A stretch of 64,000 nt of DNA, from contig CADCGZ010000010.1 of NCBI GenBank assembly GCA_902801025.1, forward strand, positions 1,551-65,550, read 5' to 3'. Each line of letters opens with the position of its first letter. Position 1 is the stretch's first letter. The DNA comes from an uncultured bacterium. GTDB lineage: Bacteria; Verrucomicrobiota; Kiritimatiellia; RFP12; UBA1067. The translations under genes and the position numbers were made by a program. Positions 6,266-54,113 of the stretch are shown here, piece after piece. The notes under the pieces were generated by a model, which ran no database searches, was not told the origin of the DNA, and worked only from the letters and a program-made list of their open reading frames with translations.

Positions 6266-6750
6266 TTCGTCTGTTCTCGCAGTTGTCATTTTGCCGTTCC
6301 GCCGCGAACAGTATAGCAAATAACAGTTTGACGCGACATGGTTACGGCTGTGGCGGAATAAAGTCGGATAGCGTCTTGTGGCGTCGGCAGCGTGTTGTGG
6401 ACGCGGCGGCAGTGAGGCGGTGGAGCGAAGACCTGGGCGAATGGATACGGCGTATTCGCCGAGGCTCCATGAGCTTTCGGCCGCCGCCTCACGAATCCTT
6501 TTGCGAGTGGTTGAGTTGTGGTTGAGGCATAGTTGAGTCGGAATCGTCCTTTGATTCGACACGAAGGATGGTTGAGTCATGGGTGTTCGCCAAGCGCGGG
6601 ATCGTCCGTCTGGCGGCTTCGGACGGCTGGAATGTTATTGGGAAACGATTGCGGCGTGGTTGTGATTGGCTCGTGATTGTTGGATGGTTGGCGGCGTCAA
6701 TATCGGGATTGGGAAATGGTTGAAGCCAGCCAACTTTTACCCGTAATGCC

Positions 6751-6794
6751 AAAAATACGGCCGCGCGGCACATTTGCCGCGCGGCCGTATTTTT
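6751..6794. terminator. Strong bidirectional intrinsic terminator
   Basis: Perfect 16-bp stem ATACGGCCGCGCGGCA (6755-6770) / TGCCGCGCGGCCGTAT (6775-6790) with a 4-nt loop. It is flanked by AAAA upstream and TTTT downstream. Confidence 0.85.
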
Positions 6795-6881
6795 GTACGC
6801 GGCGTTGAAAATCGCGCAGCACGAAGGGAGGCATTGCTGCGCCCAAGTCTGGTGACGTGTCAAAGTCGGTAGCTCGGCACG

Positions 6882-6945
6882 GCGCATTTTTCACGGTGGA
6901 TTTTGCGCAGAATTCACTGTTCCAGCTTCGCTCATATGGTATAAT
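6882..6945 (+). promoter_or_regulatory. Direct-repeat operator + extended -10 promoter, site a (drives the GH2-PA14 unit)
   Basis: GCGCATTTTTCAC (6882-6894) and GCGCAGAATTCAC (6905-6917) are phased 23 nt apart. N19 follows, then TGGTATAAT (6937-6945). Confidence 0.6.
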
Positions 6946-6974
6946 TCAAGCAGCGAACAAAAGGAGCATTCATC

Positions 6975-9900
6975 ATGGATAGAATCGACATTGCGGCGCT
7001 TGCGGCGCTCGCGGCGCTTCCGGTCATGGCGGGTTCTGTCGTGGACTTGTCCGGCAAAGGCTGGACGTGCGAGCAGAACGGGGTGACGAAGGAGGTGTCC
7101 GTTCCGGCGGACGTCGAGGAGTACTTCGCGGACATGTCCGCGTACGCCGCGCCGAGGATCGACGCAAGCCAGCACGGATCGTGGATCGTCAGGCAGTGGC
7201 TCAAGTGCAAGGGCGAGTCGACATGGCGCAGGAAGTTCACCCTGAAATCCAAGCCGGCCGGCAAGCGCATCGTCCTCATGTTCGAGTCCACGAGGTATTT
7301 CGCCGACATCTTCGTGAACGGGAAGTTCGTGCACCACGACGAGGCTCCTGACACGCCGTACGAGGTCGACATCACGGACGCGGCGAAGTCAGGCGAGAAC
7401 GAACTCCTCGTCAAGATCGTCAACCCCGAAGGCGGCGACTACGACTGGCGGGACTTCAACACCTGCAAGTGGGAGGGCAAGCAAATCCCCGGCGGACGCG
7501 CAATGGGCGGACTCTCCGGACGCGTGAAACTCGACGTGCGCGACATCGTCTCGATCGACGACGTATTCGTCCAGAACACGCCGGCGATCAGCGAGGTCGA
7601 GGTGTTCGTGTCCATCACCAATGCGGGAACCAAGGCGGAAAAGCGTCTGGTCAGGCTCGAGGTGGAGCCCAAAGGCGTCGTATTCTCGAAGGAGATGACG
7701 CTCCAGCCGGGACTTACGGTCGTGAGCGAAAAGGCGTCCGCTCCGGAGGCGAAGCTCTGGGACCTCGATAATCCCAACCTCTACAATGCAGTCGCGACGG
7801 CCGGCGGCGAAACCTTCCGGCGCGAGTTCGGCTACCGCTGGATCGCGCCGGAGGGAATCGGGACCAACGCAGTCCTCCGGCTCAACGGAAAGCGAATAGT
7901 CGTCCGCACCGCCATCGGCTGGGGATGGTATATGGGAAGCGGAACCGTCCCGAGCGACGAAGACGCGCGCCGCGAAGTCGCGACGGCCAAGGCTCTCGGA
8001 CAGAACGGAATAAGCTTCCACCGGCACAACGGTCAGGAGAACATCCTCCGCGAGGCCGACCGCAACGGCCTTCTCATATACGCGGAACCAGGCGCCTTCC
8101 AGGGCGGCCGGCATTCGGATATCGGACGGCGCATAGCGCTGGAGCGCGTGCGCAGGTGGGTGAAGGCGTTCCGCAGCCATCCCTCGCTCTTCCACTACAA
8201 CCTCATCAACGAGTTCGGCGACACGTGCGACGACGCGACGCGCAAGTTCTTCCTTGACGGCGTGAGGCTCGTCCATGAGCTCGATCCTTCACGCACGGTG
8301 ACGCTCATGAGCGCGTGGGGCAAAGACGGCATCAACGTCAGGCATTTCCCGAAGACCCACATGCGCCCGTTCGATCCGGAGCTGTACGAGTCCGGCTGGC
8401 GCGACTCCCATCGCGCAGGCGGACCGGTGATCGGCTGGAGCGCCGGAGCGTACCGCAACAAGGACGCGTACAACAACAGGTCCTCGAACCTCGAGGAGAT
8501 AGTGTACTGGGGCGAGGAGAGTGCCTTTACGGCTCCGCCGCGGCTGCAGCTCATCGTCGACGAACTTGACCGCCGCGGGCGCGACGGAACGGACGGCAGG
8601 GTGTTCCGCGTCTGGGCGGACATGGTGAACAAGTACCTCGACAGAAAGGGGCTGCGGGGGACGTATCCCACGCTCGACGCTTTCTGCCTCGACCTCGGGC
8701 GGCAGAGCCTGTTGCACCAGGGCCGCAACATCGAGCTAGTCCGGATGGACGACGTTGCGGACGGCTACGCAATCAACGGCTGGGAGTCGATGGTCGTGGA
8801 GAACAACTCCGGCATCGTCGACACGATGCGCAATCCCAAGGGCGAGCCGAAGTGGCTTGCCAAGTACAATGCTCCGCTCAAACTCTGCGTGAATTCCAAC
8901 CAGTCGAGGGTGAGAAAGGGCCAGAACATTTCGGTGGACGTCCACATAATCAACGAGGTCGACCTCAAGGGGCCCCAGAAACTCGTCGTGGAGCTGTGGA
9001 ATCTCGAGGGCGGGGAACGCAAACTCGCCGAGGAGCGGCGCGACGTCTCGGTGACTGGCGGAGAGCGCTTCGGGGAATTCCTCTCCGAAAAGATATCGTT
9101 CAACGTTCCGTTCGCCGGCGAGGGCGAGGTGCGCGCGCACCTGGAAGGCGTGAAGGATGCGACGGGCGACTTCCCGTTCACTTCGTTCGACCTCGCCATT
9201 CCCGAATTCCCCGCCGGATACAAAATCGCCGTGGCCGAGGCTGGAGACACCATTCTCAAATGGCTCCGCGGACAGAAGCTTCCGTGCGAAACCTACAAGC
9301 CCGGAGTAAAGGCCGACGTCGTGATCGTCTCCCGCCCGCCCGGCGCGCTGCCGGCGGTTCCGGACGCACAAAGCCTCGTTGGACAGCGCGGCACGCCGGG
9401 CGTGGTCGACGTCAGGTGGTACGTGGGCGAGAAGCTGGCGGCGGAGGATACCCGGAATTCTCTCGAAGTGGAATTTCCGCAGGGGGTTCCGCCCGCGAAA
9501 GGCGTAGATCTTACGACCGGTTATTCCGTCTGCGTCGCTGGCTGCTACGTCGCGAGGTGGGACGGACGCTACCGCTTCAGGATCGAAGGGCCCGACCGCA
9601 ACGCCGACATGCTAAAGTTCTTCTGGAACGGCGATGACGTGAAGTTCGACAGCGACGGCTACATGTCGGTTGAACTCAAGGCGGGAGATTCGATTCCGTT
9701 CTACATTACCATGACACAGCGGCGCGCGAAGAAACTGAGCGTCATCGCCGAGACCCCGGAGCCGGTCGAGGACTTTAATCCCGACGAGCTTGTCGCATGC
9801 GCAAAGAACGACGGCGCGCGGGTCGTGTTCGTCGACAACGTCAAGGTGTGGATGCCTGTTGTCGCAGACATGGTCGGCGTCAAGTACGACGGATGGTTCC

Positions 9901-10232
9901 ATATCGGGCAGAGCTGGCTCGGCGGCGCGTTCTTCACGAAGAAAGGCGATCCTCTCCTGGCGGGCTTCCCCGCAGGAGCCGTCAACGAGGCCTACGAGGA
10001 GATTGCCGGGCACGGCAGCCGCTACGGACTCTTCCTCGAAGGCGAGGATCTCGCGATGGGAGCGTGGCAGTGCGAGAACTGCAAACTCGGCACCGTCGTG
10101 GGACGCATTCCCTGCGGCAAGGGCGAGGTTGTCGTTTCCACGCTGAATCTGGTCAAAAGCCTCAATACATACGGCGGCACGCGCTATTTCTACAATCTTC
10201 TCACGCGCTCCGGCGCCGTTTCGCGCAAGTAA
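6975..10232 (+). CDS. Exported GH2-family glycosidase with C-terminal PA14-like domain
   Basis: SD AAGGAG at 6961-6966 and a signal peptide. GH2 sugar-binding block RIVLMFESTRYFADIFVNGKFVHHDE..YEVDIT. Candidate catalytic Glu motifs NLINEFGD and YWGEESAF. PA14-like block GRYRFRIEGPD..FFWNGDDV. Confidence 0.8.
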   Translation: MDRIDIAALAALAALPVMAGSVVDLSGKGWTCEQNGVTKEVSVPADVEEYFADMSAYAAPRIDASQHGSWIVRQWLKCKGESTWRRKFTLKSKPAGKRIVLMFESTRYFADIFVNGKFVHHDEAPDTPYEVDITDAAKSGENELLVKIVNPEGGDYDWRDFNTCKWEGKQIPGGRAMGGLSGRVKLDVRDIVSIDDVFVQNTPAISEVEVFVSITNAGTKAEKRLVRLEVEPKGVVFSKEMTLQPGLTVVSEKASAPEAKLWDLDNPNLYNAVATAGGETFRREFGYRWIAPEGIGTNAVLRLNGKRIVVRTAIGWGWYMGSGTVPSDEDARREVATAKALGQNGISFHRHNGQENILREADRNGLLIYAEPGAFQGGRHSDIGRRIALERVRRWVKAFRSHPSLFHYNLINEFGDTCDDATRKFFLDGVRLVHELDPSRTVTLMSAWGKDGINVRHFPKTHMRPFDPELYESGWRDSHRAGGPVIGWSAGAYRNKDAYNNRSSNLEEIVYWGEESAFTAPPRLQLIVDELDRRGRDGTDGRVFRVWADMVNKYLDRKGLRGTYPTLDAFCLDLGRQSLLHQGRNIELVRMDDVADGYAINGWESMVVENNSGIVDTMRNPKGEPKWLAKYNAPLKLCVNSNQSRVRKGQNISVDVHIINEVDLKGPQKLVVELWNLEGGERKLAEERRDVSVTGGERFGEFLSEKISFNVPFAGEGEVRAHLEGVKDATGDFPFTSFDLAIPEFPAGYKIAVAEAGDTILKWLRGQKLPCETYKPGVKADVVIVSRPPGALPAVPDAQSLVGQRGTPGVVDVRWYVGEKLAAEDTRNSLEVEFPQGVPPAKGVDLTTGYSVCVAGCYVARWDGRYRFRIEGPDRNADMLKFFWNGDDVKFDSDGYMSVELKAGDSIPFYITMTQRRAKKLSVIAETPEPVEDFNPDELVACAKNDGARVVFVDNVKVWMPVVADMVGVKYDGWFHIGQSWLGGAFFTKKGDPLLAGFPAGAVNEAYEEIAGHGSRYGLFLEGEDLAMGAWQCENCKLGTVVGRIPCGKGEVVVSTLNLVKSLNTYGGTRYFYNLLTRSGAVSRK

Positions 10233-10249
10233 AGAAAGGAGAACGAAAC

Positions 10250-10801
10250 ATGAAATTCCGCAAAGCAGTTCTTTCCGCGTTGATTGCCGCCGCAGCCTCT
10301 GCGGCGGCGGCGGACCAGGCCTCGCCGCGCCTCATCGGGCGCTTTTTCAGCGAGAAGAGCTCCCGGGAGGAGCACAGGCTCGGCATCGCCGCGTTCGCGG
10401 ACATAGACCTTTCCGGCGAGAGCGAGGATTCGCTTGAACTCGCCGGGGAGATCAGGGTCGATTGTCTGCATCCGAATGCGCCCAAGGACTCCGCCTGGAT
10501 GAAAAAGATATGCAACGGCAGGTTCTCCATCGCCGGGACGGACGGCAAGGACATTCAGGTCGCGCCGATGGGGTGCGGCATCGGCGTGCTCGCCGGATGC
10601 GACAAGGCCGACGAGTGGTTTCCCGTCAGCCTCAAGATCCCCCTGTCGCAGCTGAAAGGCTCGAGGATCACTAAACTCGAATTATTCATGTACAACGACA
10701 CCGCGGCGTACGCGCAGCATGCGGACGACGGCAACAAGTGGAACAACGGTTCCGGAATAAAGCTGCGTGCGCGCAATTTCCGCGTGCAGTCGGTCAGGTA
10801 A
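10250..10801 (+). CDS. Small secreted protein of unknown function (HPNAPKD / DGNxWNN domain)
   Basis: ATG at 10250 follows SD AAAGGAG. Signal peptide MKFRKAVLSALIAAAASAAAA. The mature part is homologous to the last ~165 aa of the 1432-aa GH3 (CLHPNAPKD, KIPLSQL, DDGNKWNNGSGIK). Confidence 0.6.
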   Translation: MKFRKAVLSALIAAAASAAAADQASPRLIGRFFSEKSSREEHRLGIAAFADIDLSGESEDSLELAGEIRVDCLHPNAPKDSAWMKKICNGRFSIAGTDGKDIQVAPMGCGIGVLAGCDKADEWFPVSLKIPLSQLKGSRITKLELFMYNDTAAYAQHADDGNKWNNGSGIKLRARNFRVQSVR

Positions 10802-10824
10802 AGTTAACTGGGTGCCATTTTCTT

Positions 10825-10833
10825 TGGTATAAT
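10825..10833 (+). promoter_or_regulatory. Extended -10 promoter (TGGTATAAT) upstream of the oxidoreductase unit
   Basis: TGGTATAAT lies at 10825-10833. A ~30-nt leader with GGGGATCGGAGAG precedes the ATG at 10872. No direct-repeat operator is present in register. Confidence 0.45.
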
Positions 10834-10871
10834 GCTGCCATAAACTAAAAAAAGGGGATCGGAGAGTCCAC

Positions 10872-12185
10872 ATGACAAACACGACAAGAAGGCAGTTCAT
10901 CGCTTCCGCCGCGGCGGCGGGTGTGATGGCGAAGCTCGGTGTCGCCGCGCCGTCGGCTCGGCAGGGCAGGCTCGTGAAGGGCCGCAAGATCAACATTGCG
11001 TGCGTGGGATGCGGCGGAAAGGGCGCGGATGACGTGCGCCAGTTCTCGGGCGAGAACATCGTCGCGCTCTGCGACGTCGACCTCGCGCGCGCCTCGCAGG
11101 CGGTGCTTGCGCATCCGAAGGCGAAGCTCTTCCGCGACTGGCGCGAGATGCTCGCCGTGATGGACGGCGAGATCGACGCTGTCGTCGTTTCCACGCCCGA
11201 CCACATGCACTTCCCGATAGCTCTTCGCGCAATCGAGCTGGGCAAGCACGTGTACGTGCAGAAGCCGCTCACCCATACCGTCAAGGAGGCGCGTCTGCTG
11301 CTCGAGGCCGCGCGCCGCCACAACGTCGTGACGCAGATGGGCAACCAGGGTCACTCGAACGAGAGCACGCGCCTTTTCAAGGAGATGCTCGATGCGGACG
11401 CGATAGGCGACGTCACGGAGGTCAAGATATGGACGAACCGCCCGGTATGGCCGCAGGACAAGGAGCTGCCCAAGGGCGAAATGGCCGTTCCGGCGACGCT
11501 CGACTGGAACCTCTGGCTCGGCGTCGCTCCGTGGCGTCCGTACAACCGCGCCTACATGCCGTTCGACTGGCGCGGATGGTGGGACTACGGCTCGGGCGCG
11601 ATCGGCGACATGGGCTGCCACACGATGGACGCGGCTTTCTGGGGACTCCAGCTCGGCGCGCCCGAGAGCGTCTCCGCCGAGGTCGTCGGAGGAAGCGAGT
11701 TCTCGTGTCCGAAGGGCTCTGTAGTCACCTACAAGTTCCCGGCGCGCGGAAAGCGTCCGCCTGTGACGCTGAAGTGGTATGACGGATGCTGCAAGCCCGA
11801 GCGGCCGGCGGTTCTGCCCGAAGGTGAGCCGATGCCGGGCTCTGGACAGCTGTTCACCGGGACGAAGGGCTTCATCTTCTGCCCCGGCGACTACTGCGAC
11901 TCGGCGAGGCTTCTCCCGAAGAGCCTTGCGGACTCGTTCAAGCGTCCGCCGAAGACGCTCCCGCGCATTGTGAACGGGCACTACCAGAACTGGCTGGACG
12001 GAATACGCGGCGTCGTTGACGCGCCGTGCTCGAACTTCGAGCATGCGGTCCCGCTCACTGAAATCGCGCTCCTCGGCGCAGTCGCGGTGCGCGCCCGCGG
12101 TTCGTTCAAATGGGACGCGGCGGCGCTCAAGTGCGACAATCCCGACGCGCAGCGCTACATCTCGAAGGTGTACCGCATGTTCTGA
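10872..12185 (+). CDS. Tat-exported Gfo/Idh/MocA-family oxidoreductase
   Basis: Twin-arginine signal MTNTTRRQFIASAAAAGVMA. Rossmann block INIACVGCGGKGADD..ENIVALCDVD. Further blocks STPDHMHF and YVQKPL. Confidence 0.85.
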   Translation: MTNTTRRQFIASAAAAGVMAKLGVAAPSARQGRLVKGRKINIACVGCGGKGADDVRQFSGENIVALCDVDLARASQAVLAHPKAKLFRDWREMLAVMDGEIDAVVVSTPDHMHFPIALRAIELGKHVYVQKPLTHTVKEARLLLEAARRHNVVTQMGNQGHSNESTRLFKEMLDADAIGDVTEVKIWTNRPVWPQDKELPKGEMAVPATLDWNLWLGVAPWRPYNRAYMPFDWRGWWDYGSGAIGDMGCHTMDAAFWGLQLGAPESVSAEVVGGSEFSCPKGSVVTYKFPARGKRPPVTLKWYDGCCKPERPAVLPEGEPMPGSGQLFTGTKGFIFCPGDYCDSARLLPKSLADSFKRPPKTLPRIVNGHYQNWLDGIRGVVDAPCSNFEHAVPLTEIALLGAVAVRARGSFKWDAAALKCDNPDAQRYISKVYRMF

Positions 12186-12211
12186 GGAACGGACACGAAA
12201 GGATCTATGAA

Positions 12212-13561
12212 ATGAAAAGGCTTGTTTTCTGTTTTGCGCTCGCCGGATCGCTTTCCGCGCTTGCCGCCGACCTGAGGCTCTCGCTCCAGGCGTACACGTT
12301 CCGCGACCGCTCGTTCGTCGAGACGGTCGAGACGGCCGCTCGCCTCGGCTACACGAACATCGAGGCGTATCCCGGCCAGCGCCTCGGCGGCGGCATGGAG
12401 GGGTCGACCGACTACCACATGAAGCCCGAGACCTTCGCTCAGCTGAAGGAATATCTCGCCAAGGCCCCCGTCAAGGTCGTCTCGTACGGAGTAACCGGTG
12501 CCGGCGGGGACGACGAATGGCGCAGGCTGCTGACGTTCTGCCGCGACCTCGGCATCGAGATCGTGCAGATCGAGGTCGGGCCGGACCACAACCGCCTCGT
12601 GCACATCGCGTCGCTCGCGAAGGAGTACGGCGTGCGCGTCGGACTCCACAACCACCGGCAGGAGCCCGGACGCCCGGAGAAGGTCCTTGCTGCGCTCGGC
12701 GACTGCGATCCGATAGTGGGCTCGAGCGCGGACATCGGGCATTGGCACAACTCGGGCGTCGACCCGGTCGAAGGCGTCAAGGCGCTCAAGGGACGCTTCC
12801 ACAGCATCCACGCGATCGACTCGTCGGCGAAGCAGGGCGGAAAGGACGTCGCGCTCGGGTCAGGCGTCATGGACGTCAAGGCTGTGCTCGATCTCCTCAA
12901 GGAGAACGAGAAGGGCGTCGTGTATGTCACCGTCGAGGACGAGTGGCAGCATGCGGATCTTGAGGAGGCCGTCGCGGCGAGCGCGCGCTGGTTCAAGGCG
13001 TGGGAGCGCGGCGAGCTGACACCGTGCGGACGCATCGGGGTTTCGTCGATTGATTCCCTCTGGAAGGACGTCGACGGGAAGAATCCGCTTCTTTGGGACG
13101 TTTCCATCGTCGGAGGGGAAAACATCGAGGAGAAGGTTTCGCAGATGCGCAAAATCGGCCTTGAGGAAGGCTCGCTCAAGTCCGACGAGAAGGGCATGAA
13201 CGACCGTGAGGACGTCGCGAGCGCGTTCGCGGGCGAAGACGCGAAGTTCTGCCGTCCGTGGAAGGAGAAGGCGTACGTATCCTGCCGCACGACGTTCCTC
13301 GTTGCGGCGAACTACTACACCGTCGCGTCGGCGAACGACGATCCGGGGCGCGATCCAGTGTCGTGGGTGCTCTACGGTTCTAAGGACGGCGGACCGTGGG
13401 TCGAGCTCGACAGGCGCGAGAACCAGAAGTTCCCGCTCAGGAAGCAGCTTCGCGGATACGAGATCAAGAATCCGCAGATGTCCCGCGACTACAAGATCGA
13501 GTTTCTCAAGAACAACGGCGGTAAACTCATCCAGTTCAGCCGCGTCGCGTTCTACGAATAG
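12212..13561 (+). CDS. Secreted xylose-isomerase-like TIM-barrel (sugar phosphate isomerase/epimerase fold) protein fused to a discoidin/F5-8-type-C-like domain
   Basis: Signal peptide MKRLVFCFALAGSLSALAA. TIM-barrel blocks LRLSLQAYTFRDRSFVETVETAARLGYTNIE...GLHNH. C-terminal block YTVASANDDPGRDPVSWVLYGSKDGGPWVELD...IQFSRVAFYE. Confidence 0.75.
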   Translation: MKRLVFCFALAGSLSALAADLRLSLQAYTFRDRSFVETVETAARLGYTNIEAYPGQRLGGGMEGSTDYHMKPETFAQLKEYLAKAPVKVVSYGVTGAGGDDEWRRLLTFCRDLGIEIVQIEVGPDHNRLVHIASLAKEYGVRVGLHNHRQEPGRPEKVLAALGDCDPIVGSSADIGHWHNSGVDPVEGVKALKGRFHSIHAIDSSAKQGGKDVALGSGVMDVKAVLDLLKENEKGVVYVTVEDEWQHADLEEAVAASARWFKAWERGELTPCGRIGVSSIDSLWKDVDGKNPLLWDVSIVGGENIEEKVSQMRKIGLEEGSLKSDEKGMNDREDVASAFAGEDAKFCRPWKEKAYVSCRTTFLVAANYYTVASANDDPGRDPVSWVLYGSKDGGPWVELDRRENQKFPLRKQLRGYEIKNPQMSRDYKIEFLKNNGGKLIQFSRVAFYE

Positions 13562-13609
13562 TCAATGGCCCACGCTTCGCGCGGGGATGTAAATAAAGAA
13601 AATGCAGAA

Positions 13610-16270
13610 ATGAAAATGACATTGTTGGTGTGCGCAGTTGTTGCGCATTGTGCGCCAATTGCCTCCTTATCGTCCTTTGCGGGGGTGTTCCAAGAGCGCG
13701 AGGCGCTGACCGTGACGGGCGAGTGGACGATGGGAAGGGAGTCTGCGCTCTCCGTGTCCGGACGCGCCGTCTCGTCGGCGGGGTTCGACGATTCCAAGTG
13801 GCTCCCGGCCAAGGTGCCGGGGACCGTCTTGGACAACATGGTCCGCAACGGACTCCTCCCCGACCCGTACTATGGCATCAACAACCGCCGCAAGCTCAAG
13901 ACGATCCCCGACCTCAACGACGTAGAACCGGAATACTACACCGCGTGGTTCCGCACGACGTTCGACGTGCCCGCGGACTACAAGGGCAAGAACGTGTGGC
14001 TCGCCCCAGAGGGCATCAACTACCGCGGCGAGATATGGATCAACGGACAGGCCGTCGGCAAGACGGCCGGCATGTTCAGGCGGCAGGTGTTCGACGTGAC
14101 GGATTTCATCAAGCCTGGAGAGAAGAACGTCATCGCAGTTAAGGTGTCGCCGGTCGACATCCCTGGCGATCCGCATCCGCAGGCCAACGGCAAGACGTGG
14201 GGCGCGACGGGCGAGTGGCGCAACGGCGGCGACGGGCAGATCGGCAAGAACGTGACGATGCTCATGTCCATCGGCTGGGACTTCACGTTCTCGGACGGAA
14301 TCCGCGACCGCAACACCGGCATCTGGCGTCCGATCAGGCTCTTCGCGACCGGCCCCACGCGCCTCGCCAATCCGTTTGTCCGCACGAAGTTCCTCGATCC
14401 CGCCCACAAGCAGGTTGAGATTGTCGCCGACATCGAGGTCGACAACTATGCGGGCCGCAGGGGCATGGGCCAGTTCATCGAGTTCACGGTCGAGGGCACG
14501 AGCATAAAGCAGCGCACCCACATCGGCGTGAACCGCGGCGAATACGGCATGCGCACGTTCAAGGTCAAGCTCGACAATCCGAAGCTCTGGTGGCCGCGCA
14601 ACAAGGGCGAGCAGAACCTGTACACCGCGGTGTTCACGTCCTACTGCGACCAGAAGGGGCGCGAGAACGAGGTCTACGACCAGGTGAAGGTGCGCTTCGG
14701 CGTACGCGAAATCACGAGCGACGGCGGGAAGGGCCCCGACGGCAAGGAGCGCGACCGCCAGTTTTACGTGAACGGACGCAAGATGTTCGTGCGCGGCACG
14801 AACTGGATTCCCGAGGCGATGCTGAAGTCGGACGACGCGCGCATGGAGGCGGAGATACGTCTCCTCGCAGAGTCGGGCGTAAACTTCGTCCGCCTCTGGG
14901 GCGGCGGCATCATCGAGAGCGACTACTTCTACGACCTCTGCGACAAGTATGGACTCGTCGTGTGGCAGGAGTTCTTCATGACGGGCGACACGGCGCATCC
15001 GCAGGACCGCGAGCTCTACCTCGCGAACGTCGCGGACTCCGTGAAGCACATACGCAACCACGCTTCGCTCGGGCACTACGTCTGCTCCAACGAGTCCTCC
15101 GAGACGCCCGGCATCCGCGAGCTCATCGCGAAGCTCGACCCGACGCACGCCTACATGCCTTCCTCGGAGACGTTCGGCGTCCACGACGGCAGCCCCTACA
15201 AGATCGTGAACCCCATGCGCTACTACGAGGACACGGCGTCCGACCGCGGCAGCCGCGCGTACGGCTTCAACCCCGAGTACGGCACGTGCGCGCTTCCGGA
15301 CGCGGAGTACCTCCGCACGTTCATGCCAGAGAAGATGCTATGGCCGATGGACCGCGAGGCGTGGCGCTACCGCGAGGGCGGCGGTTTCGACGACATGACG
15401 ACGGTTCACGACGTGATGGTGAACGCCTACGGACGCTCCAAGTCGATCGACGAATACTGCCGCAAGTCCGAGGCCGTCGACGCGATGAACCATCGTGCGC
15501 TCTGGGAGGTGTGGAACCGCGCCTCCGCAACGCGCAAGGCGACGGGAGTTCTCTTCTGGTACGCGAACACGCCTGTGCCGAAGATCGGCTCGCACGCGTG
15601 GGACCACTCGCTCGGGCTCACCTCCGCCTTCTTCGCGCAGAAGAGCGCGCTCGCTCCGCTCCATGCGCAGTTCGACTACCTCGACAACATGGTGTCCGTC
15701 ATGAACGACACGGTCTCCGACAGGTCGGTCGAAGTCGTCGCGCAGGTCTACGACTTCTCCTCGCGCAAGATCGCCGAGAAGAAGGTGTCCGCCAAGGCCC
15801 CCGCCGAGACTTGCACCGACCTCTTCGCGATCGAGCTTCCGGCGGAGCTCACGCCGATCCACTTCATCAGGCTCGCGCTTCTCGAGAACGGCAGGGAGAT
15901 CGACTCGACCGTGTACTGGCGCTCGACGAGCAAGTACACTGGGCCTAAGAAGATGGACGGTCCGACGACGGCTGGATTCGAGACGATGGACAGCCTGCCG
16001 AAGACAAAGCTCTCCGCCAAGGCGGCCCCAGCAAAGGGCGGAACGCTCGTAACCGTCCGCAACGACGGCAAAGGCATCGCTTTCATGGTAAAGCTCCTCG
16101 CCCGAGACGCGAAGGGCCGCAACCTGAAGCCGACGTTCTACTCGGACAACTGGTTCTCGCTGATGCCCGGCGAAACGAAGCAGGTCCTCGTCGAGCCACC
16201 GACCGGCGCTGCGTCCTGGACAGCCGAGGCGTGGAACGCGCCCCGCGTCACGGGTAGTCTGCGGAATTGA
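13610..16270 (+). CDS. Exported GH2 glycosidase (beta-mannosidase / exo-glucosaminidase-like)
   Basis: Start trimmed to MKMTLLVCAV. Blocks WLPAKVPGTVLDNMVRNGLLPDPYYGINN and NVWLAPEGINYRGEIWINGQAVG. WGGGIIESDYFYDLCDKYGLVVWQEF is typical of this GH2 subgroup. Confidence 0.8.
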   Translation: MKMTLLVCAVVAHCAPIASLSSFAGVFQEREALTVTGEWTMGRESALSVSGRAVSSAGFDDSKWLPAKVPGTVLDNMVRNGLLPDPYYGINNRRKLKTIPDLNDVEPEYYTAWFRTTFDVPADYKGKNVWLAPEGINYRGEIWINGQAVGKTAGMFRRQVFDVTDFIKPGEKNVIAVKVSPVDIPGDPHPQANGKTWGATGEWRNGGDGQIGKNVTMLMSIGWDFTFSDGIRDRNTGIWRPIRLFATGPTRLANPFVRTKFLDPAHKQVEIVADIEVDNYAGRRGMGQFIEFTVEGTSIKQRTHIGVNRGEYGMRTFKVKLDNPKLWWPRNKGEQNLYTAVFTSYCDQKGRENEVYDQVKVRFGVREITSDGGKGPDGKERDRQFYVNGRKMFVRGTNWIPEAMLKSDDARMEAEIRLLAESGVNFVRLWGGGIIESDYFYDLCDKYGLVVWQEFFMTGDTAHPQDRELYLANVADSVKHIRNHASLGHYVCSNESSETPGIRELIAKLDPTHAYMPSSETFGVHDGSPYKIVNPMRYYEDTASDRGSRAYGFNPEYGTCALPDAEYLRTFMPEKMLWPMDREAWRYREGGGFDDMTTVHDVMVNAYGRSKSIDEYCRKSEAVDAMNHRALWEVWNRASATRKATGVLFWYANTPVPKIGSHAWDHSLGLTSAFFAQKSALAPLHAQFDYLDNMVSVMNDTVSDRSVEVVAQVYDFSSRKIAEKKVSAKAPAETCTDLFAIELPAELTPIHFIRLALLENGREIDSTVYWRSTSKYTGPKKMDGPTTAGFETMDSLPKTKLSAKAAPAKGGTLVTVRNDGKGIAFMVKLLARDAKGRNLKPTFYSDNWFSLMPGETKQVLVEPPTGAASWTAEAWNAPRVTGSLRN

Positions 16271-16301
16271 CATGATTTAGTACAAGGAGGTAAAGCTGAA
16301 C

Positions 16302-17771
16302 ATGAAAACGACTGGAATCAGGCTCTCAGCATCTGTTTTGTTTTCCGCGGCGGTTTTATCCGCCTCCGCGGATGTCAGGCCCGCTGCCGTCTTCACCGAC
16401 GGCGCCGTGCTACAGGCAAAGCGGCCCGTGCCCGTGTGGGGCATGGCCGATCCGGGCGAAAAGGTCGTCGTCAAGTTCGCCGGCCAGACTAAGACGGCCA
16501 AGGCGGGCGGGGACGGCAAGTGGCGCGTCGCGCTCGATCCGATGGCGTACTCTTCCGTTGGACGTGAGCTGGTCGTCGGTTCGACGAAGTTCTCCGACGT
16601 CCTGGTCGGGGAGGTTTGGCTCGGCATCGGCCAGTCGAACATGGAGTTCTCCTTCGACATCTGCGAGGAGGGCAAGGTCGCGTCCAAGGGCGGGGTGATT
16701 CCGACGACCGTCAGGTACTTCCACCTGCCCAAGGACGGCGACGAGAAGCCGCGCGACATGTTTGCAGTGCCGGAGGGGACGAAGTGGCGCGCCTACACGA
16801 AGGAGAACGAGAAGGAGAACAAGCGCTCGTCGATGCTGTTGGCGCTGTTCGCGCAGAGGCTCTCCGCCGCGCTGGACGTGCCGATTGGCGTAATCGGCGC
16901 GGCTGTGGGCGGCGCGAACCTCGAGACGTGGATGAGCGAGGCGGCGATCGCCGAGGCTGGGACGCAGGAGGAGGCGGCGAAGCTCCTCAAGATGTGCGAG
17001 GGCTGGCACCAGAACGACATCAAGCGCTGGGAGAACCGTCCCGAGAGCGAGAAGAACAGGCCGTTCCCGAAGATCAACTACGAGAGCCGTCCGACGCAGG
17101 TCTGGAACGCGATGGTCCCTCCGCTCGCGCCGTACGCCGTGCGCGGCATGATCTGGTACCAGGGCGAGATGAACTCCGGCTGGCAGAAGTACGAGAAGCA
17201 GTTCCCGTTTTTCGTGAAGCACCTGCGCGCGGCCTTCGGCGTGACGGACCAGCCGCTCTACATCGTGCAGCTGCCCGACTTCAAGCAGGATCACTGGGTG
17301 CGCATCCGCGACGTGCAGCGCAGGATGAGCGAGACCGTCTCCAACTGCGAACTCGCCGTGACGATCGACGGCAACGAGCTCGAGCTGCATCCGAGGGACA
17401 AGACGAAGCTCGCCACGCGCCTTGCGAACCTCGCGCTCGCGGGATGCTACGGACGCAAGATGCTTGCGCGCTCGCCGGCGCCCGAGAAGGCCGCCGCCAA
17501 GGGCGGGAAGGTGCGCGTCGCGTTCAAGAACGCCGGCGATGGGCTCAAGCTGACCGAAGGCGCCGCGCCGCGCACGTTTGAACTCGTGGAGAAGGGCGAC
17601 AAGGGAGTCCCGGTCGAGGCGAAGCTCGTCGGGAAGAACGTCGTCGAACTGACCGTCCCCGAGGGAATGAGCGCGCCGACGCGCGTCAGGTACGCGTGGT
17701 CGCCGGATCCGGACGTCAACCTCGTCAACTCCGCAGACCTCCCCGCCACACCGTTCGAGATCGAGCTGTAG
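16302..17771 (+). CDS. Sialate O-acetylesterase-like (SASA/DUF303) carbohydrate esterase
   Basis: SD AAGGAGG at 16284-16290 and a signal peptide. Blocks VFTDGAVLQAKRPVPVWGMADPGEKV...GGDGKWRV and VWLGIGQSNME. Confidence 0.8.
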   Translation: MKTTGIRLSASVLFSAAVLSASADVRPAAVFTDGAVLQAKRPVPVWGMADPGEKVVVKFAGQTKTAKAGGDGKWRVALDPMAYSSVGRELVVGSTKFSDVLVGEVWLGIGQSNMEFSFDICEEGKVASKGGVIPTTVRYFHLPKDGDEKPRDMFAVPEGTKWRAYTKENEKENKRSSMLLALFAQRLSAALDVPIGVIGAAVGGANLETWMSEAAIAEAGTQEEAAKLLKMCEGWHQNDIKRWENRPESEKNRPFPKINYESRPTQVWNAMVPPLAPYAVRGMIWYQGEMNSGWQKYEKQFPFFVKHLRAAFGVTDQPLYIVQLPDFKQDHWVRIRDVQRRMSETVSNCELAVTIDGNELELHPRDKTKLATRLANLALAGCYGRKMLARSPAPEKAAAKGGKVRVAFKNAGDGLKLTEGAAPRTFELVEKGDKGVPVEAKLVGKNVVELTVPEGMSAPTRVRYAWSPDPDVNLVNSADLPATPFEIEL

Positions 17772-17836
17772 GCGCTGACAGTTGCGGAATGACATTTCTG
17801 CCACGCTGAATTTTCAACAACATAAAGGAACACCCC

Positions 17837-20800
17837 ATGAAGACAAAACTCCTTGCGATTGCGGCCGCCGCCGCGTCAGTTGGTTTCGGAGCCGCGCAGC
17901 CGGCCTACCTCGACACGTCGCTCTCCTTCGAGGAGCGCGCCGCGGACCTCGTCTCGCGCATGACGCTCGACGAGAAGTGCGACCAGTTGGGACGCACGAC
18001 AAAGGCGGTGCCGCGCCTCGGCGTCGCGCGCTACGACTTCTGGAACGAGGCGCTGCACGGAATCCAGAACGGAACAGGCGAGGGCACTAGCTTCCCGATG
18101 CCGCTTTCGCTCGCCGTGACGTGGGACGAGGATTTCATCCGCCGCGTCGCTGAGGCGATCGCGGACGAGTGCCGCGGGCATTCCCAGCCCGTCGCGCAGG
18201 GCGGGCGCGGGCGCGGGCTCTCCTACTGGTGTCCGACGATCAACCTCGCGCGCCATCCCCTCTGGGGCCGCACGAACGAGGCCTGGGGCGAAGACCCGTA
18301 TGTCGCCGGCATGCTTTCGAGCGCGTTCGTCGAAGGCATGAAGGGCGACGACGCGAAGTACCTCAAGACGGTCCCGACGATCAAGCACTACGCGCTCAAT
18401 GACCACGAGAACCAGCGCGGCTCTACGTCGTCCGACGCAAGCGAGGCCGACATCCGCGACTACTACGCGCGCGTCTACCGCTACGTCGTGGAGCGCACGG
18501 ACGTCCCGTCGCTCATGAGCGCGTACAACGCCGTCAACTACACGCCGTCCTCCGGCAACCCGTTTCTGCTGACGACACTTCTCAGGGACACCTTCGGCTT
18601 CACCGGATTCGTGGTCTCCGACTGCGGCGCGATCGACAACCTCGAGCGCCAGCAGAAGTGGCGTCCGGACAGGAACACGGTGCAGCCGAAGAACTACCGC
18701 ACCGTTCCCGGAAAGGCGCTCTCCGACTACGTCGACGACAACGGCGTCGTGACGAAGCCCGGCTCCGTTGCGCTCGCGCTCATGGCGGGATGCGACATGG
18801 ACTGCAACGGCGACATCTATCCCTCCAACGCGCGCCGCGCGGTTGCCGCTGGGATACTGGACGAGAGCCAGGTCGACCTCAACGTCTACCGCAGCGTACT
18901 CGCACGCTTCAAGCTCGGCGAGTTCGACCCCGCGGGCAAGGTCGCTTGGCGCGGCGAGAAGTACTCTTTCGCAAACACGGTCGAGACCAAGGAGCACCGC
19001 GCGCTCGCCGACGAGGCGGCCGCGCGCAGCGTGGTGCTGCTCAAGAACGAGGGCTCGATCCTTCCACTCGACGTAAGGAAGATGCGCAGGATCGTAGTGG
19101 TAGGCGACGGCGCGGACACGTGCTTCCTCGGCAACTACCACGGCAAGCCGAAGGAGAAGAACCGCATCTCGTGCTACGCAGGCATCGACGACTACCTCTT
19201 CGTCCACAACCGCGCGACCGAGCTCAAGCTCGTCGACAAGTTCGGCGAGGACGGCGCGATAAGGGAGGAGGACAAGGCGGCAATCGCCGCGGCTGACTGC
19301 GTCATCGTCGTTGCGACCGACACGCACGACGACTCGAGCGAGGGCAAGGACCGCGAGGCGCTCGTGCTCTCGCGCAGCCAGGACAAGATCGCCGCGAACG
19401 TCGCCGCGATCAACAAAAACACAGTCGTGTTCGTCCAGACCTCGAACGTCGTCGAGCTCGGACGCTTCAAGGACGCGGTCAAGGCGATCCTCTGGTCGTC
19501 GCAGAACGGACAGGGCCAGGGCGTCGGACTCGCCCGCCAGCTCTTCGGCGACGTGAACCCCTGCGGCAGGCTCGTCTTCACGTGGTTCGCGAAGGAGAGC
19601 GAACTCCCGGGCATCCGCCAGTATGGTCTCAGGGAGAAGTTCCTTCCCGAGGAGAAGGACTATCCGAACGGCGGCTATACGTACCGCTATTTCAAGGGCG
19701 CGGTCGACTATCCGTTCGGCTACGGACTCAGCTACACGACGTTCAAGTACGGCAAGGCGTCCGCAAGCGCGAAGAGCGTGGACGCGAACGGCAAGGTCAC
19801 GCTCTCCGTAGATGTCACGAACACCGGCAGGCGCGAGGGCTCCGAGATCGTTCAGGCCTACGTCGTCTATCCGAAGGGATGTTCGCTCCCAGCGAAGGAG
19901 ATCAAGGGCTACGCTAAGGTCGACCTCAGGCCGGGCGAGACCAAGACGGCGAAGATAGTCGTCGACGTTTCCGACTGCGCGTTCTGGGACGGAAGGCGCC
20001 GCGTCGTTCCGACCGGAGACTGGACGGTCGAGATAGGCGCGTCCGCCGAGGACGTCAAGGCGCGCTTCCCGCTCAAGGTCAGCGGACGCCTCGTCGATGC
20101 CGTCGCCGTCGTGACGCCCAATCCCTCGGACGTCGTCGTGGTGCAGGGCAAGACTGTCAAGACTGACCTTCGCTTCTCGCTCAAGGACGACACGATCCTC
20201 CCCGCGTCCGCCGCCAAGGTCGCATACACGTCGTCCAATCCCTCCGTCGCGTCCGTCGACGCGAAGGGCGTCGTGAAGGGCTTGAAGCCCGGCGTCGCCA
20301 CGATCACCGCCAAGGTCGACTACAGGGGTTCCGTGAAGTCCGCGTCGTTCCCGATTGCCGTGACGGACGGGAAGCCCGACACCACCGACGTCTCGAAGGA
20401 CCTCGCCGCGGCGGATGCGCCGCGCGCGGCCGAGAAGCCGAAGGCGGCGCTCTACGACCGCGACGCGCTTGAGGAAGCGATCAGGGTCAAGGTCGTCGGT
20501 GATGACTACGACCCCGCGACGCTGGCCGCGTACTACGCCGGGATCCAGAAGGCCCGCGAGGTGTTCTTCGACGGGAACGCGACCGCGGCGCAGGTCGACA
20601 AGGCGTGCCGCGATCTCCTCGCGGTGAAGTCCAACCTGCGCGACTACAGGTACGTCGTGGCGGACTTCCGCGCTGCCAACCGCCTCTGGCACTTCAACGC
20701 CGGCAAGAGCATCTGGGTCAACTGGGCGCGCATCCGCGACGCCGTGGGCCGCGAGGTCGAGAGCGACTTCACGTCGCACGACCCGAAGAAGCTCGAGCTC

Positions 20801-35135: not shown

Positions 35136-35149
35136 GGGATTTTCAAACT

Positions 35150-37213: not shown

Positions 37214-37226
37214 TTGGCGATTGACG

Positions 37227-43369: not shown

Positions 43370-43407
43370 CCCTAGATGCTGAAATAGATAGTGCATCCGC
43401 TGCCTTT

Positions 43408-50529: not shown

Positions 50530-50550
50530 AGGCGCCTGCTTTTTTGCCCT

Positions 50551-50614
50551 GCGTAAATTTCACGATATTTTCTGCGTTGTGTTCACGCAGCAGAAATGTG
50601 CTATATGCTATAAT
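50551..50614 (+). promoter_or_regulatory. Direct-repeat operator + extended -10 promoter, site c (drives GH3-E; leaderless)
   Basis: GCGTAAATTTCAC (50551-50563) and GCGTTGTGTTCAC (50574-50586), followed by N19 and TGCTATAAT (50606-50614). The ATG at 50621 is the predicted +1. Confidence 0.6.
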
Positions 50615-50620
50615 GAAAAC

Positions 50621-52712: not shown

Positions 52713-54113
52713 ATGAAAAAAATCGCACTGCTGGCCTGCATGGCCGCGGCCATATCCGCTTCGGCGGAAATCCTCATCGGCAACGGTGACAGGATCGCCT
52801 TCCTCGGCGACTCGATCACCGCCAACGGAAACCGCCCGGCCGGATACGTGAACATGGTGATGAAGGGACTGGAGGTCGCAGGTGTAAAGGCCGAGAAGGT
52901 CCCTGCCGGCGTTTCCGGCCACAAGTCGAACGAGATGCTTGCGCGCCTCGACAAGGACGTCATCTCGAAGAACGTGAAGTGGATGACTTTCTCGTGCGGC
53001 GTGAACGACGTGTGGCACTTCGATTGGAACAAGGGCGTTTCGCTCGAGGACTACAAGCGCAACTGCTCCGAGATATTCGACAAGTGCGCGGCGGCCGGCA
53101 TCAAGGTCATCGTCCTCACCGCGACGATGATACGCGAGGACGCGTCCAACAAGCAGAACACGATGCTCGTCGGGTACAACGACTGGCTGCGTGCCGAGGC
53201 GAAGCGCCGCTCCCTGCCTCTCGCCGACCTCAACGCCGACATGCAGGCGGAGCTTGGGCGCATCCGCGCGGCGGACAAGACGCCCGGCAACAAGCTCACC
53301 GTCGACGGCGTGCACATGGCCTTCCCCGGCGACTGCATGATGGCGTGGGGCGTTTTGCGCGCGATGGGCGTCGACGAGTCGAAGAAGGTCGAGATATACG
53401 CCGCGTGGCGCAAGATGCCCGAGGCATGGAAGTACGAGCTAAAGCTGTCGGACGAGGAAAACGAACGCCTGCTCGAGGCCGGGATCTGCCCTGGAGACCT
53501 CGCGCGCCGCGCGCTTGACGCGATGGACGGATGGAAGAGCGTCAAGTGGCGCCGTTCCGCGTTCGAGGGCGGCGTCTGGAAGATGGGCGTCGACGGCGTG
53601 ATGACGGCGACGAAGGACGACGCGATCTGGTCCGACGCGAGCTACTCGAACTTCGAGCTCGACTTCGACTACAAGCTCGAAGCAGGCGCGAACTCTGGCG
53701 TCATCATATACGCCGAGGACACGAAGAACTGGATTCCGAACGCCATCGAGATCCAGCTCCTCGACGACAACCACGAGCGCTGGAAGAAGGACGCCCCTGA
53801 GCTCAAGAACGGCTCGCTCTACGGACATGTCGCGCCGACGGCGTTTCCTGCAAAGGGCGCGGGGCAGTGGAACCACATGACGATCAAGGCGGTCGGCCAG
53901 CAGATCACGGTCACCGTCAACGGCCAGGTTGCGCTCGATTATTCACTTGCGAAGCTTACGGACGGCAAGGTCGCGCCAAGCGGCTTCAAGATCCCTGGCC
54001 ATCTGCCGCGTCCGTGGTCGACGATCCGCACGTCCGGCCCGATCGGCTTCCAGGGCATGCACGGCGGTGCGCTCCCGTACTTCCGCAATGTCCGCATTCG
54101 CAGCGTAAAGTAA
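52713..54113 (+). CDS. Exported SGNH/GDSL hydrolase fused to a DUF1080 (3-keto-disaccharide-hydrolase-like, LamG fold) domain
   Basis: SGNH blocks IAFLGDSITANG, GVNDVWH, DGVHMAFPGD. DUF1080-like blocks SYSNFELDFDYKLEAGANSGVIIY...IEIQLLDD...GPIGFQGMHG..YFRNVRI. Confidence 0.75.
   Translation: MKKIALLACMAAAISASAEILIGNGDRIAFLGDSITANGNRPAGYVNMVMKGLEVAGVKAEKVPAGVSGHKSNEMLARLDKDVISKNVKWMTFSCGVNDVWHFDWNKGVSLEDYKRNCSEIFDKCAAAGIKVIVLTATMIREDASNKQNTMLVGYNDWLRAEAKRRSLPLADLNADMQAELGRIRAADKTPGNKLTVDGVHMAFPGDCMMAWGVLRAMGVDESKKVEIYAAWRKMPEAWKYELKLSDEENERLLEAGICPGDLARRALDAMDGWKSVKWRRSAFEGGVWKMGVDGVMTATKDDAIWSDASYSNFELDFDYKLEAGANSGVIIYAEDTKNWIPNAIEIQLLDDNHERWKKDAPELKNGSLYGHVAPTAFPAKGAGQWNHMTIKAVGQQITVTVNGQVALDYSLAKLTDGKVAPSGFKIPGHLPRPWSTIRTSGPIGFQGMHGGALPYFRNVRIRSVK

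Follow-up and report, generated by a model that had tools for sequence, protein, structure and literature searches.

Introduction

Studies of human gut bacteria have described an oxidation–elimination–hydration pathway of glycoside cleavage, encoded by AL1-AL4 in Alistipes and by BT2156-BT2159 in B. thetaiotaomicron (Nasseri et al., bioRxiv 10.1101/2024.03.25.586180; Liu et al., PMC8121099; Liou et al., 10.1101/626366). The AL/BT enzymes are interchangeable, non-obligate partners that act strictly in exo mode, and ordinary glucosides are also cut. The Agrobacterium operon with the O-glycoside beta-eliminase AtOGE (Bitter et al., PMC10628242; PDB 8BVK) uses an FAD-dependent GlycDH as the oxidant. 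In the DgpA plus DgpB/C systems, a Gfo/Idh/MocA oxidant is combined with a metal-dependent TIM-barrel eliminase, as in the pair described here; unlike that pair, DgpB/C has a Glu at beta-5 and needs a second subunit.

In this study, we analysed a stretch of 64,000 nucleotides (the window) from one of the Kiritimatiellae, a rumen bacterium. We believe that two adjacent genes in it are likely to provide the first two steps of a periplasmic non-hydrolytic glycoside cleavage, with their products probably docked to each other in this lineage. The locus is a variant of a known pathway, and its new element is the binding predicted between the two proteins. The preliminary description had proposed a periplasmic oxidation/beta-elimination module, and this core reading is well supported. 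It had named three known routes as models. The Bacteroides/Alistipes route is favoured. The DgpA/DgpBC route is a poor match, given the much larger distance to DgpA and a His, instead of a Glu, as the beta-5 metal ligand, and the Agrobacterium FAD/GMC route was not borne out. A bypass of linkages that resist the hydrolases, also suggested there, is at most a possibility; the known enzymes act on ordinary glucosides as well. In the literature searched, which included few subscription journals, we found no description of such a variant in Kiritimatiellae with 3-keto/lyase chemistry, of a CBM32 combined with 3-keto chemistry, or of a dehydrogenase–lyase heterodimer of this kind.

Gene layout

The genes, domains, residues, gene order and conservation reported below are observations. 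The two ORFs lie on the + strand, as had been proposed, and are separated by 26 nt; the first encodes 437 aa and the second (12212-13561) 449 aa (Table 1).

Table 1. Features of the putative cleavage locus in the window
Feature	Position	Strand	Basis or remark
Extended -10 promoter-like box	10825..10833	+	5' of dehydrogenase gene
Putative Tat-type NAD-dependent glycoside 3-dehydrogenase, AL3/BT2158-like	10872..12185	+	Pfam, PDB/NCBIfam matches, residue alignment
Sec-type signal peptide of TIM-barrel protein	12212..12265	+	Residues 1-18, by eye
Xylose-isomerase-like TIM barrel, 3P6L subfamily	12266..13018	+	Residues 19-269
Linker behind barrel	13019..13117	+	Residues 270-302; conserved L283, W284, W295
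CBM32/discoidin-fold domain	13118..13561	+	Residues 303-449
Secreted GDSL esterase + DUF1080 (3IMM subfamily), probable third component	52713..54113	+	Pfam; adjoins pair elsewhere

The promoter-like box was the sole site in a scan of positions 6000-18500, where 1.6 would be expected by chance. An intergenic motif recurs with constant spacing to -10 boxes and in this resembles an operator. Compared with genome G101, the window is without this motif upstream of the dehydrogenase gene and without a 2078-nt beta-helix gene, the junction being at 10819. Co-transcription with the downstream GH genes is plausible from the shared strand and the short gaps. Among the runs labelled as RNA, some matched no more than 0.63 of the words and carried a flag for likely DNA, and the others matched small shares.

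Dehydrogenase

The first protein begins with MTNTTRRQFI and matches the Pfam domains GFO_IDH_MocA, C2 and C3 (PF01408, PF19051). Its twin-arginine motif RRQF occupies residues 6-9, and RRxF was found in 18/18 relatives, in agreement with the Tat-exported Gfo/Idh/MocA oxidoreductase of the preliminary description. In the PDB, 8TDF and 8TDH were the best matches (E 2e-90 and 7e-90), followed by the next structure at 4e-19, DgpA at 4e-17 and inositol dehydrogenases at about 1e-10. The top NCBIfam match was BT_2158_fam (NF058561) with 426.5 bits, compared with 62 for IolG; this is the best family by far, though the score falls short of the equivalog cut-off of 750 bits, and on sequence the enzyme is filed as AL3-like, outside the BT_2158 equivalog. 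Among the 19 BT2158 matches in the genome, it ranked first.

The AL3 active-site residues Q161, R192, W195, D248, H252 and Y349 correspond in the 8TDF alignment to Q159, R190, W193, D246, H250 and Y341, an identity of 6/6 with a system whose 3-dehydrogenase is likewise Tat-exported and of the Gfo/Idh/MocA family. Five of the six were invariant across 18 partner dehydrogenases, and the Tyr aligned in 16/18. We infer by analogy that the enzyme oxidises glycosides at C3 with a tightly bound NAD. Unlike the AL/BT enzyme, it has a truncated C-terminal tail, which ends in Y434-R435-M436-F437 (YRxF type), and the pair is without an adjacent AL4-like second dehydrogenase or SusR-like regulator.

TIM-barrel protein

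The second protein had been described as a secreted xylose-isomerase-like barrel, and both an AP_endonuc_2 match in Pfam (residues 40-263) and a Sec-type N-terminus, judged by eye, agree with this. Its predicted metal/catalytic site consists of H146, H148, D174, H200 and E242 on beta5-beta8, on strands equivalent to those of H132, H134, D163, H189 and E233 in AtOGE; 8BVK aligns directly with the H/H/D/H residues, and E242 was assigned from its place on the strand instead of a pairwise alignment. The tally covered 117 of the 120 listed homologues; H146, H148, D174 and H200 were invariant throughout, and E242 was found in 115. An H-x-H/D/H/E set is also present in the likewise secreted AL/BT barrels. 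The position of AL1 W214 is taken by H177. For AL1 H103, the motif comparison points to Y92/G93, which is no evident equivalent, and 34/34 full-length relatives lack the Lys of H-x-K-D.

No sequence match to AL1/BT1 was found by phmmer, and the similarity to AtOGE was marginal (E 5e-4). Foldseek placed AL1 at rank 3 as the best characterised match to the predicted fold. The Z score to AL1 was 21.3, which is mid-field, while DgpC, epimerases, AsbF and IolE scored 22-24; by protein, Z was 24.3 for Art22, 23.4 for DgpB/C, 22.6 for IolE, 21.7 for AtHYD and 21.0 for YcjR. Fold searches do not separate a lyase from an epimerase or dehydratase here. The closest solved relatives are the P. distasonis 3P6L group (Z 30.2, rmsd 2.2 A over 248 residues, 29% identity), namely BDI_1903 (3P6L), BDI_1873 (4KW2) and 3LMZ, but these are single-domain proteins. 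The literature searched, with few subscription journals, held neither a function for these three nor a measured activity for any member of the 3P6L subfamily. Unlike AL1/BT1, the window protein belongs to this subfamily and adds a linker and a CBM32; AtOGE also is without a CBM. A comparison of the TIM protein against 100 relatives yielded distant paralogues only.

Fusion to DUF1080 was found in 13/120 listed homologues and in 16/36 long representatives, the latter hand-selected; the domain order in P0141 is TIM-CBM32-DUF1080, and the barrel of P0031 is also fused to DUF1080. The barrel is predicted to work like the AL1/BT1 lyases while sitting outside their subfamily, that is, to be a 3-ketoglycoside lyase with an O-glycoside eliminase site in an uncharacterised subfamily.

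CBM32 domain

The C-terminal domain had no Pfam match at E<=0.001. The discoidin-type carbohydrate-binding-like domain reported before nevertheless proved to have a CBM32 fold by both sequence and structure: it matched the CBM32s of 7NSN (E 1.7e-28; Z 20.1, rmsd 1.9 A over 137 residues) and CBM32 4LKS (Z 16.9, 2.4 A over 139 residues). E333, W350, D376 and R380 align to E105, F122, D148 and R152, the ligand-binding residues of the N-terminal CBM32 of Neobacillus novalis GH92 (7NSN), which unlike ours is attached to a hydrolase. Glycan binding by the NnGH92 CBM32 was not demonstrated in assays, and its authors suggest a structural role too (PMC10167667). In our model, the domain is predicted to hold an oligosaccharide near both enzymes.

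DUF1080 and FAD genes

The DUF1080–esterase fusion was recovered by Pfam as GDSL plus DUF1080. It lies 39 kb from the pair in the window; the DUF1080 gene comes next after the TIM gene in L111, L033 and L034, which represent one near-identical genome and two further loci. These loci and the fusion in P0031 uphold the link between the pair and the distant gene that had been suggested. DUF1080 was adjacent in 4/21 CBM-fused loci. A 3IMM-type DUF1080 was found in 14/15 genomes with the CBM-fused pair (E<=1e-49) versus 10/117 in the genus (E<=1e-35). One genome (G013) has the GDSL-DUF1080 gene and no pair; the GH3-to-DUF1080 junction of the window also occurs there.

The DUF1080 domain matched 8TDA weakly (E 1e-5) and the uncharacterised 3IMM strongly. 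Among the BT2 residues E103, N134, E164, Q166, Y190, K245, Q273 and H275, sought by motif on this weak match, six had candidates (N327, E346, Q348, Y370, Q447 and H450, the last one residue further out), and E103 and K245 were not located. The AL/BT systems also have a DUF1080 partner, and the window protein differs from it: it is 3IMM-type, it carries a GDSL esterase domain, and such genes often lie far from the pair. On these matches we regard 52713-54113 as the probable third component, an alpha-lyase/hydratase. A more canonical DUF1080-Gfo-TIM-TIM cluster is located on another contig of the genome (C43) and could supply the pathway instead.

The FAD-dependent oxidoreductase domain (43518-47308) had also been counted among the components. 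The domain exists (PF12831, with GDSL, F5/8 and golvesin domains), but we rejected a role in the module: it is not of the GMC glucoside dehydrogenase type, compared with G101, where it is a single 1278-aa ORF, the gene has a 46-nt deletion between 45805 and 45806 that breaks it into two frames, and in G101 it lies about 14 kb from the pair. The GMC C-terminal domain PF05199 was absent from the genome while 5 controls were positive, in contrast to the FAD-dependent oxidant of the AtOGE operon.

Conservation and rearrangement

The genome, which is 82.6% complete, contains 22 Gfo/Idh/MocA, 11 AP_endonuc_2 and 9 DUF1080 matches, and adjacency alone means little for this reason. The pair was adjacent in 18/18 CBM-fused loci that had 1.2 kb or more of upstream sequence, compared with 18/112 loci without a CBM, and because of this conservation we believe that the pairing is non-random. 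Both orthologues were present in the same 3/117 genus genomes. The proposed tie to GH2, SASA, GH3 and GH55 genes did not hold: neighbours differ in nearly every relative, and G101 has those genes 37-48 kb upstream.

A misassembly that separates the TIM gene from the DUF1080 gene was rejected on two contigs. One, from run X1 (which may be the source), covers 6751-14987 without a difference, and one from another study (X8) carries the TIM gene, 2212 other letters and the same GH2 gene. An integron-like cassette array, considered since the genes are shuffled between strains, was not supported; there was no tRNA in the window and no integrase among the ORFs scanned, and the recurring intergenic motif is spaced from -10 boxes as an operator would be.

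Predicted complex

Like the folds, the complex is a prediction. The dehydrogenase and TIM protein scored 0.90 in three runs against 0.00 for the best of 3 controls, a score that expresses model confidence and is not a measurement. Contacts agreed by at least 90% between runs, and the partner pLDDT was 91. The mark was reached by 116/157 solved pairs and 2/215 mismatched ones, which is a rough guide with the alignments used here. The YRxF tail is predicted to dock on the TIM linker and barrel helix 8, at an interface of conserved non-catalytic TIM residues (A256, R259, W260, A263, L283, W284 and W295). The linker was found in 25/29 YRxF loci, 0/11 GW-tail loci and 0/113 loci without such a dehydrogenase; this correlation belongs to a single clade and hence represents one event. 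In this lineage, the two enzymes probably associate as a heterocomplex, held together by the dehydrogenase tail and the TIM linker.

The two enzymes could also be independent while performing the same chemistry, with the interface an artefact of the model; this competes only with the complex, and we hold it to be possible but doubtful. The AL/BT enzymes are interchangeable without obligate complexes, the window proteins are exported by different routes (Tat-type and Sec-type signals), related TIMs without the linker exist in the window's own clade (P0031, P0020 and P0039), and the score reflects confidence only. Against independence stand the gap between the score and its controls, the conservation of interface residues that are not catalytic and the co-occurrence of tail truncation and linker. 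In L118-L120, moreover, the TIMs are without a signal peptide while the partner dehydrogenases keep RRxF. We tentatively speculate that the 3-keto pathway of the PVC superphylum may quite possibly be a two-chain machine, in which the GWxL tail was lost and a Trp of the TIM linker completes the dehydrogenase in trans, the lyase of Kiritimatiellota gained a CBM32, the 3-keto-glycoside is channelled, and the lyase of L118-L120 is exported on its partner's Tat signal.

Proposed pathway and alternatives

In the pathway that we favour, Tat would export the dehydrogenase folded with NAD. From AL3 homology, it would oxidise the C3-OH on a terminal gluco- or manno-configured sugar. By identity of the site with AtOGE/AL1, a divalent metal at H146/D174/H200/E242 would hold the 3-keto group while H2 is removed and the aglycone eliminated, giving a 2-hydroxy-3-keto-glycal. 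A DUF1080 protein, most likely 52713-54113, would hydrate the glycal and probably cleave alpha-anomers, and the 3-keto sugar would be reduced by the dehydrogenase with NAD+ regained, both as in the AL/BT system. The predicted heterocomplex would keep the keto intermediate near the lyase.

A different division of labour would make the TIM protein a keto-glycal hydratase or an enzyme that epimerises or isomerises the keto intermediate (YcjR, Art22-like) and leave cleavage to DUF1080. The fold scores to Art22, YcjR and AtHYD are as high as that to AL1, H177 and the lost H-x-K-D Lys suggest altered chemistry, and most loci are without an adjacent DUF1080 gene, so the TIM protein might also hydrate. 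Two-base epimerases have Glu at the beta-5 ligand position. The TIM protein has His there, as do AtOGE and AL1, and its frequent fusion to DUF1080, itself a hydratase, argues for a complementary step; we consider this division unlikely. Action on free monosaccharides or cyclitols by an IolG/IolE-like dehydrogenase and dehydratase is very improbable. IolE shares the fold, with a faint NCBIfam match (E 0.005), and monosaccharides and cyclohexyl rings are among the substrates of AL3-type enzymes, but the cut-offs of TIGR04380 and TIGR04379 were missed (62 of 355 and 16 of 290 bits), no IolE or IolD exceeded its cut-off in the incomplete genome while controls were positive, IolG scores far below BT_2158_fam, and both proteins carry export signals and one a CBM32. 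Hardly any weight is left for deglycosylation of flavonoid C-glucosides of the DgpA/DgpBC type, although DgpB/C ranks high among the fold matches and C-glycosides can be oxidised by AL3/BT3: C-glycoside eliminases carry Glu at the position of H146, which is His in every tallied homologue, DgpA is much further away than AL3, 3-keto-C-glycosides are not cleaved by AL1/BT1, and the second small subunit is absent beside the pair (PF19906, the family of that subunit, had zero matches in the genome and zero in the control genomes too).

Biological meaning

The route became known only recently, from free, interchangeable enzymes of Bacteroidota, and the pair described here suggests that rumen Kiritimatiellae have a version of it. 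Should the complex prove unreal, the pair would be no more than another ordinary example of a widespread pathway. Three elements would be added to that pathway: a predicted function for the 3P6L subfamily of barrels, which has solved structures but no assigned role, a binding module for carbohydrates attached to the putative lyase, and a predicted dehydrogenase–lyase complex. A docked pair with a binding module could attack larger or immobilised glycans than the exo-acting AL/BT enzymes, which would bear on the breakdown of fibre and plant glycosides in the rumen.

Conservation of the Dehydrogenase–TIM-Barrel Pair

The two open reading frames of the pair lie where the preliminary description placed them, with 26 nt between them, in a long run of glycoside-hydrolase genes on the same strand. 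The closest named record, the Kiritimatiellae genome L111, shows 95% nucleotide identity across both genes, and the stretch is contained in bovine gut metagenomes. Because the genome (G000) has 22 Gfo/Idh/MocA, 11 AP_endonuc_2 and 9 DUF1080 matches, family membership alone proves nothing. We fetched 160 loci, 21 with a CBM-fused barrel. A gene resembling the Alistipes enzyme AL3 was directly upstream of the CBM-fused barrel in all 18 loci with enough upstream DNA, several of them close kin, and directly upstream of barrels without a CBM in 18 of 112. Orthologues of the pair co-occurred in the same three of 117 genus genomes. The co-occurrence of the pair holds across relatives, and the proposed link to its GH2, SASA, GH3 and GH55 neighbours is not upheld: the flanking genes, some hydrolases and some housekeeping, differ by locus. 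Because adjacency is kept while the flanks vary, the conserved unit is the pair rather than the nearby hydrolases.

Against solved structures, the dehydrogenase matched 8TDF (E 2e-90) and 8TDH (E 7e-90), with the next match only at 4e-19 and DgpA at 4e-17. Both entries are assigned to AL3 of Nasseri et al. (10.1101/2024.03.25.586180) because the residue spacing agrees. The six pocket residues of AL3 correspond to Q159, R190, W193, D246, H250 and Y341; among the 18 dehydrogenases adjoining CBM-fused barrels, five are invariant and the Tyr is aligned in 16. The protein, the best BT2158-type match within G000, scored 426.5 bits for BT_2158_fam (under the cut-off of 750) and 62 for IolG. Judged from sequence, its AL3-type residues suggest a gluco/manno-configured substrate.

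TIM Barrel and CBM32

In the AlphaFold model of the TIM-barrel protein (pLDDT 87.6), the barrel (19-269) is followed by a linker and a beta-sandwich. Residues matching the metal and catalytic site of the lyase families are present: H146, H148, D174 and H200 do not vary among the 117 homologues tallied (of 120), E242 occurs in 115, and all five lie on the same strands as H132, H134, D163, H189 and E233 of the Agrobacterium O-glycoside eliminase AtOGE. Bitter et al. (PMC10628242) describe AtOGE H134 as catalytic and report that Glu takes the first site position in C-glycoside eliminases. The H/H/D/H/E set is identical in AL1 (Nasseri et al., 10.1101/2024.03.25.586180), but the position of AL1 W214 is His here, and the Lys of H-x-K-D is gone from 34/34 full-length relatives. 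No sequence match to AL1/BT1 was found, fold scores failed to single out lyases among barrel families, and the nearest solved barrels (3P6L, 4KW2, 3LMZ) are all uncharacterised. The missing match, the unspecific fold and the two substitutions argue against simple orthology. DUF1080 fusions, found in 13 of the 120 listed homologues and in 16 of 36 long representatives that we selected from 150 (two carry ThuA), partly fill this gap; one protein, P0141, combines TIM, CBM32 and DUF1080. Separately, P0122, P0123 and P0125 each carry two to four of these barrels in tandem.

Both its fold and its features identify the C-terminal domain as a CBM32. Its E333, W350, D376 and R380, each at least 90% conserved, align with the four mannoimidazole-holding residues of the NnGH92 CBM32 (PMC10167667).

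Predicted Dehydrogenase–Barrel Complex

Among 19 loci with a readable start, three of one clade (L118-L120) encode a barrel without a signal peptide and a dehydrogenase retaining the twin-arginine motif; for this reason, complex prediction was run for the window pair. The score was 0.90 in three runs and 0.00 in the best of three controls, with contacts agreeing to at least 90% and partner pLDDT 91; the score mark is met by 116/157 solved and 2/215 mismatched pairs, counts that are rough for the alignments used here. No solved complex of the two families was present among the structure matches examined, a non-exhaustive set. In the prediction, dehydrogenase residues 431-437 and Rossmann helices contact helix 8 of the barrel as well as the linker (270-302). 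The CBM hardly participates, and conserved non-catalytic A256, R259, W260, A263, L283, W284 and W295 are part of the interface.

Most related dehydrogenases end in Y-R-x-G-W-x-L, and one clade of 29 (support 100/99) ends at Y-R-x-F. A W...W linker follows the barrel at 25 of the 29 loci with a YRxF tail, and by eye three of the remaining four carry a similar extension. It occurs in 0/11 GW-tail loci and in 0/113 loci lacking a dehydrogenase of this kind; the only additional instance, L034, is truncated immediately upstream. The joint occurrence of tail and linker agrees with the predicted complex at the sequence level, and represents one evolutionary event rather than many; W284 may stand in for the lost tail Trp. 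Liou et al. (10.1101/626366) suggested a possible complex. The linker is absent from P0031, P0020 and P0039 (partners not seen), and the AL/BT enzymes are reported to be interchangeable and non-obligate (Nasseri et al., 10.1101/2024.03.25.586180); both points argue against an obligate complex.

Gene Order, DUF1080 and Regulation

In the near-identical genome G101, the GH2-hypothetical-dehydrogenase-TIM block sits between orthologues of window 50378-52675 and the GDSL-DUF1080 gene, whose start lies 36 nt beyond the TIM stop. The same TIM to GDSL-DUF1080 order occurs in L033 and L034, and the fusion P0031, nesting in the window's clade, is 68% (barrel) and 86% (DUF1080) identical to the window's counterparts, so the suggested tie of the distant DUF1080 gene to the pair gains support. 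DUF1080 adjoins the pair in only 4/21 CBM-fused loci. A same-subfamily DUF1080 is present anywhere in the genome in 14/15 with the CBM-fused pair (L116 and L126, lacking the full arrangement, omitted) vs 10/117 in the genus, a contrast inflated by kinship and genome size. The gene order seen in the window is real; genome G013 has its GH3-to-DUF1080 junction and lacks the pair. The FAD gene, once proposed as part of the module, belongs to PF12831 and is dropped; it is one 1278-aa ORF in G101, split in the window sequence by a 46-nt deletion (frameshift). No GMC domain was found in G000.

These close genomes differ by a gene-by-gene reshuffling of the CAZyme array, with blocks relocated and genes lost or gained at intergenic junctions. 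One sequencing run (X8) has 2212 additional letters immediately after the TIM gene.

A conserved operator-like motif precedes the extended -10 boxes of CAZyme genes at near-fixed spacing; there are 14 copies on G101:C96, and the pattern matched 9 times in G000 and never in 20 window shuffles. G101 has it upstream of the dehydrogenase's -10 box; the window lacks both the motif and a 2078-nt gene before the dehydrogenase, and the -10 box remains. Transcription from the promoter of the GH2 gene, near 6888, may read through.

Coordinates of features in the window and related contigs
Feature	Position	Remark
Dehydrogenase	10872-12185	
TIM-barrel-CBM32	12212-13561	
GDSL-DUF1080	52713-54113	
FAD gene	43518-47308	F5/8-GDSL-FAD oxidoreductase-golvesin
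Motif TGCG-A/T-rich-TTCACG-N-TTTTGCG	6888, 24845, 62133	Degenerate near 43405
Repeat after AbgT-family gene	6300-6700	Gap, multi-copy; summed contig depth far above surroundings in 4/4 runs
Hairpin	~6755-6795	Left edge of moved block; recurs in G101
CAZyme array	6758-62144	G101:C96 73000-199000
Secreted 183-aa protein	10250-10801	No match in Pfam or NCBIfam searches; resembles part of large GH3 17837-22135 (35% in L111)
Seven GH3 paralogues	17837-56202	Four tandem at 32949-41440; DNA likeness 60-84%
1185-aa ORF	29370-32927	No Pfam/NCBIfam match; sole relative on G101 contig, 31%
DUF1080, Gfo, TIM, TIM	G000:C43 3200-8200 (L208)	More canonical, BT2156-59-like
Gfo/TIM/DUF1080 groupings	G000:C28, C7, C40, C175, C35 (L209-L213)	TIM-DUF1080 fusions on C28, C175

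Relation to the Known Pathway

The oxidation-elimination-hydration pathway is already known, with further accounts by Liu et al. (PMC8121099), Huang et al., Price et al. and Kaur et al. In the literature searched, which included few subscription journals, no description was found of a CBM32-fused barrel, a function of the 3P6L subfamily or a dehydrogenase-lyase complex. G000 has other such modules; in the more canonical one on C43, the Gfo has six of six AL3 residues, the second-listed TIM matches AL1/BT1 and both TIMs have twin-arginine-like N-termini. By analogy with the AL/BT enzymes and AtOGE, the dehydrogenase with bound NAD would oxidise the substrate at C3, the barrel would carry out a metal-aided elimination, the DUF1080 protein would perform hydration, and the dehydrogenase would complete the final reduction.
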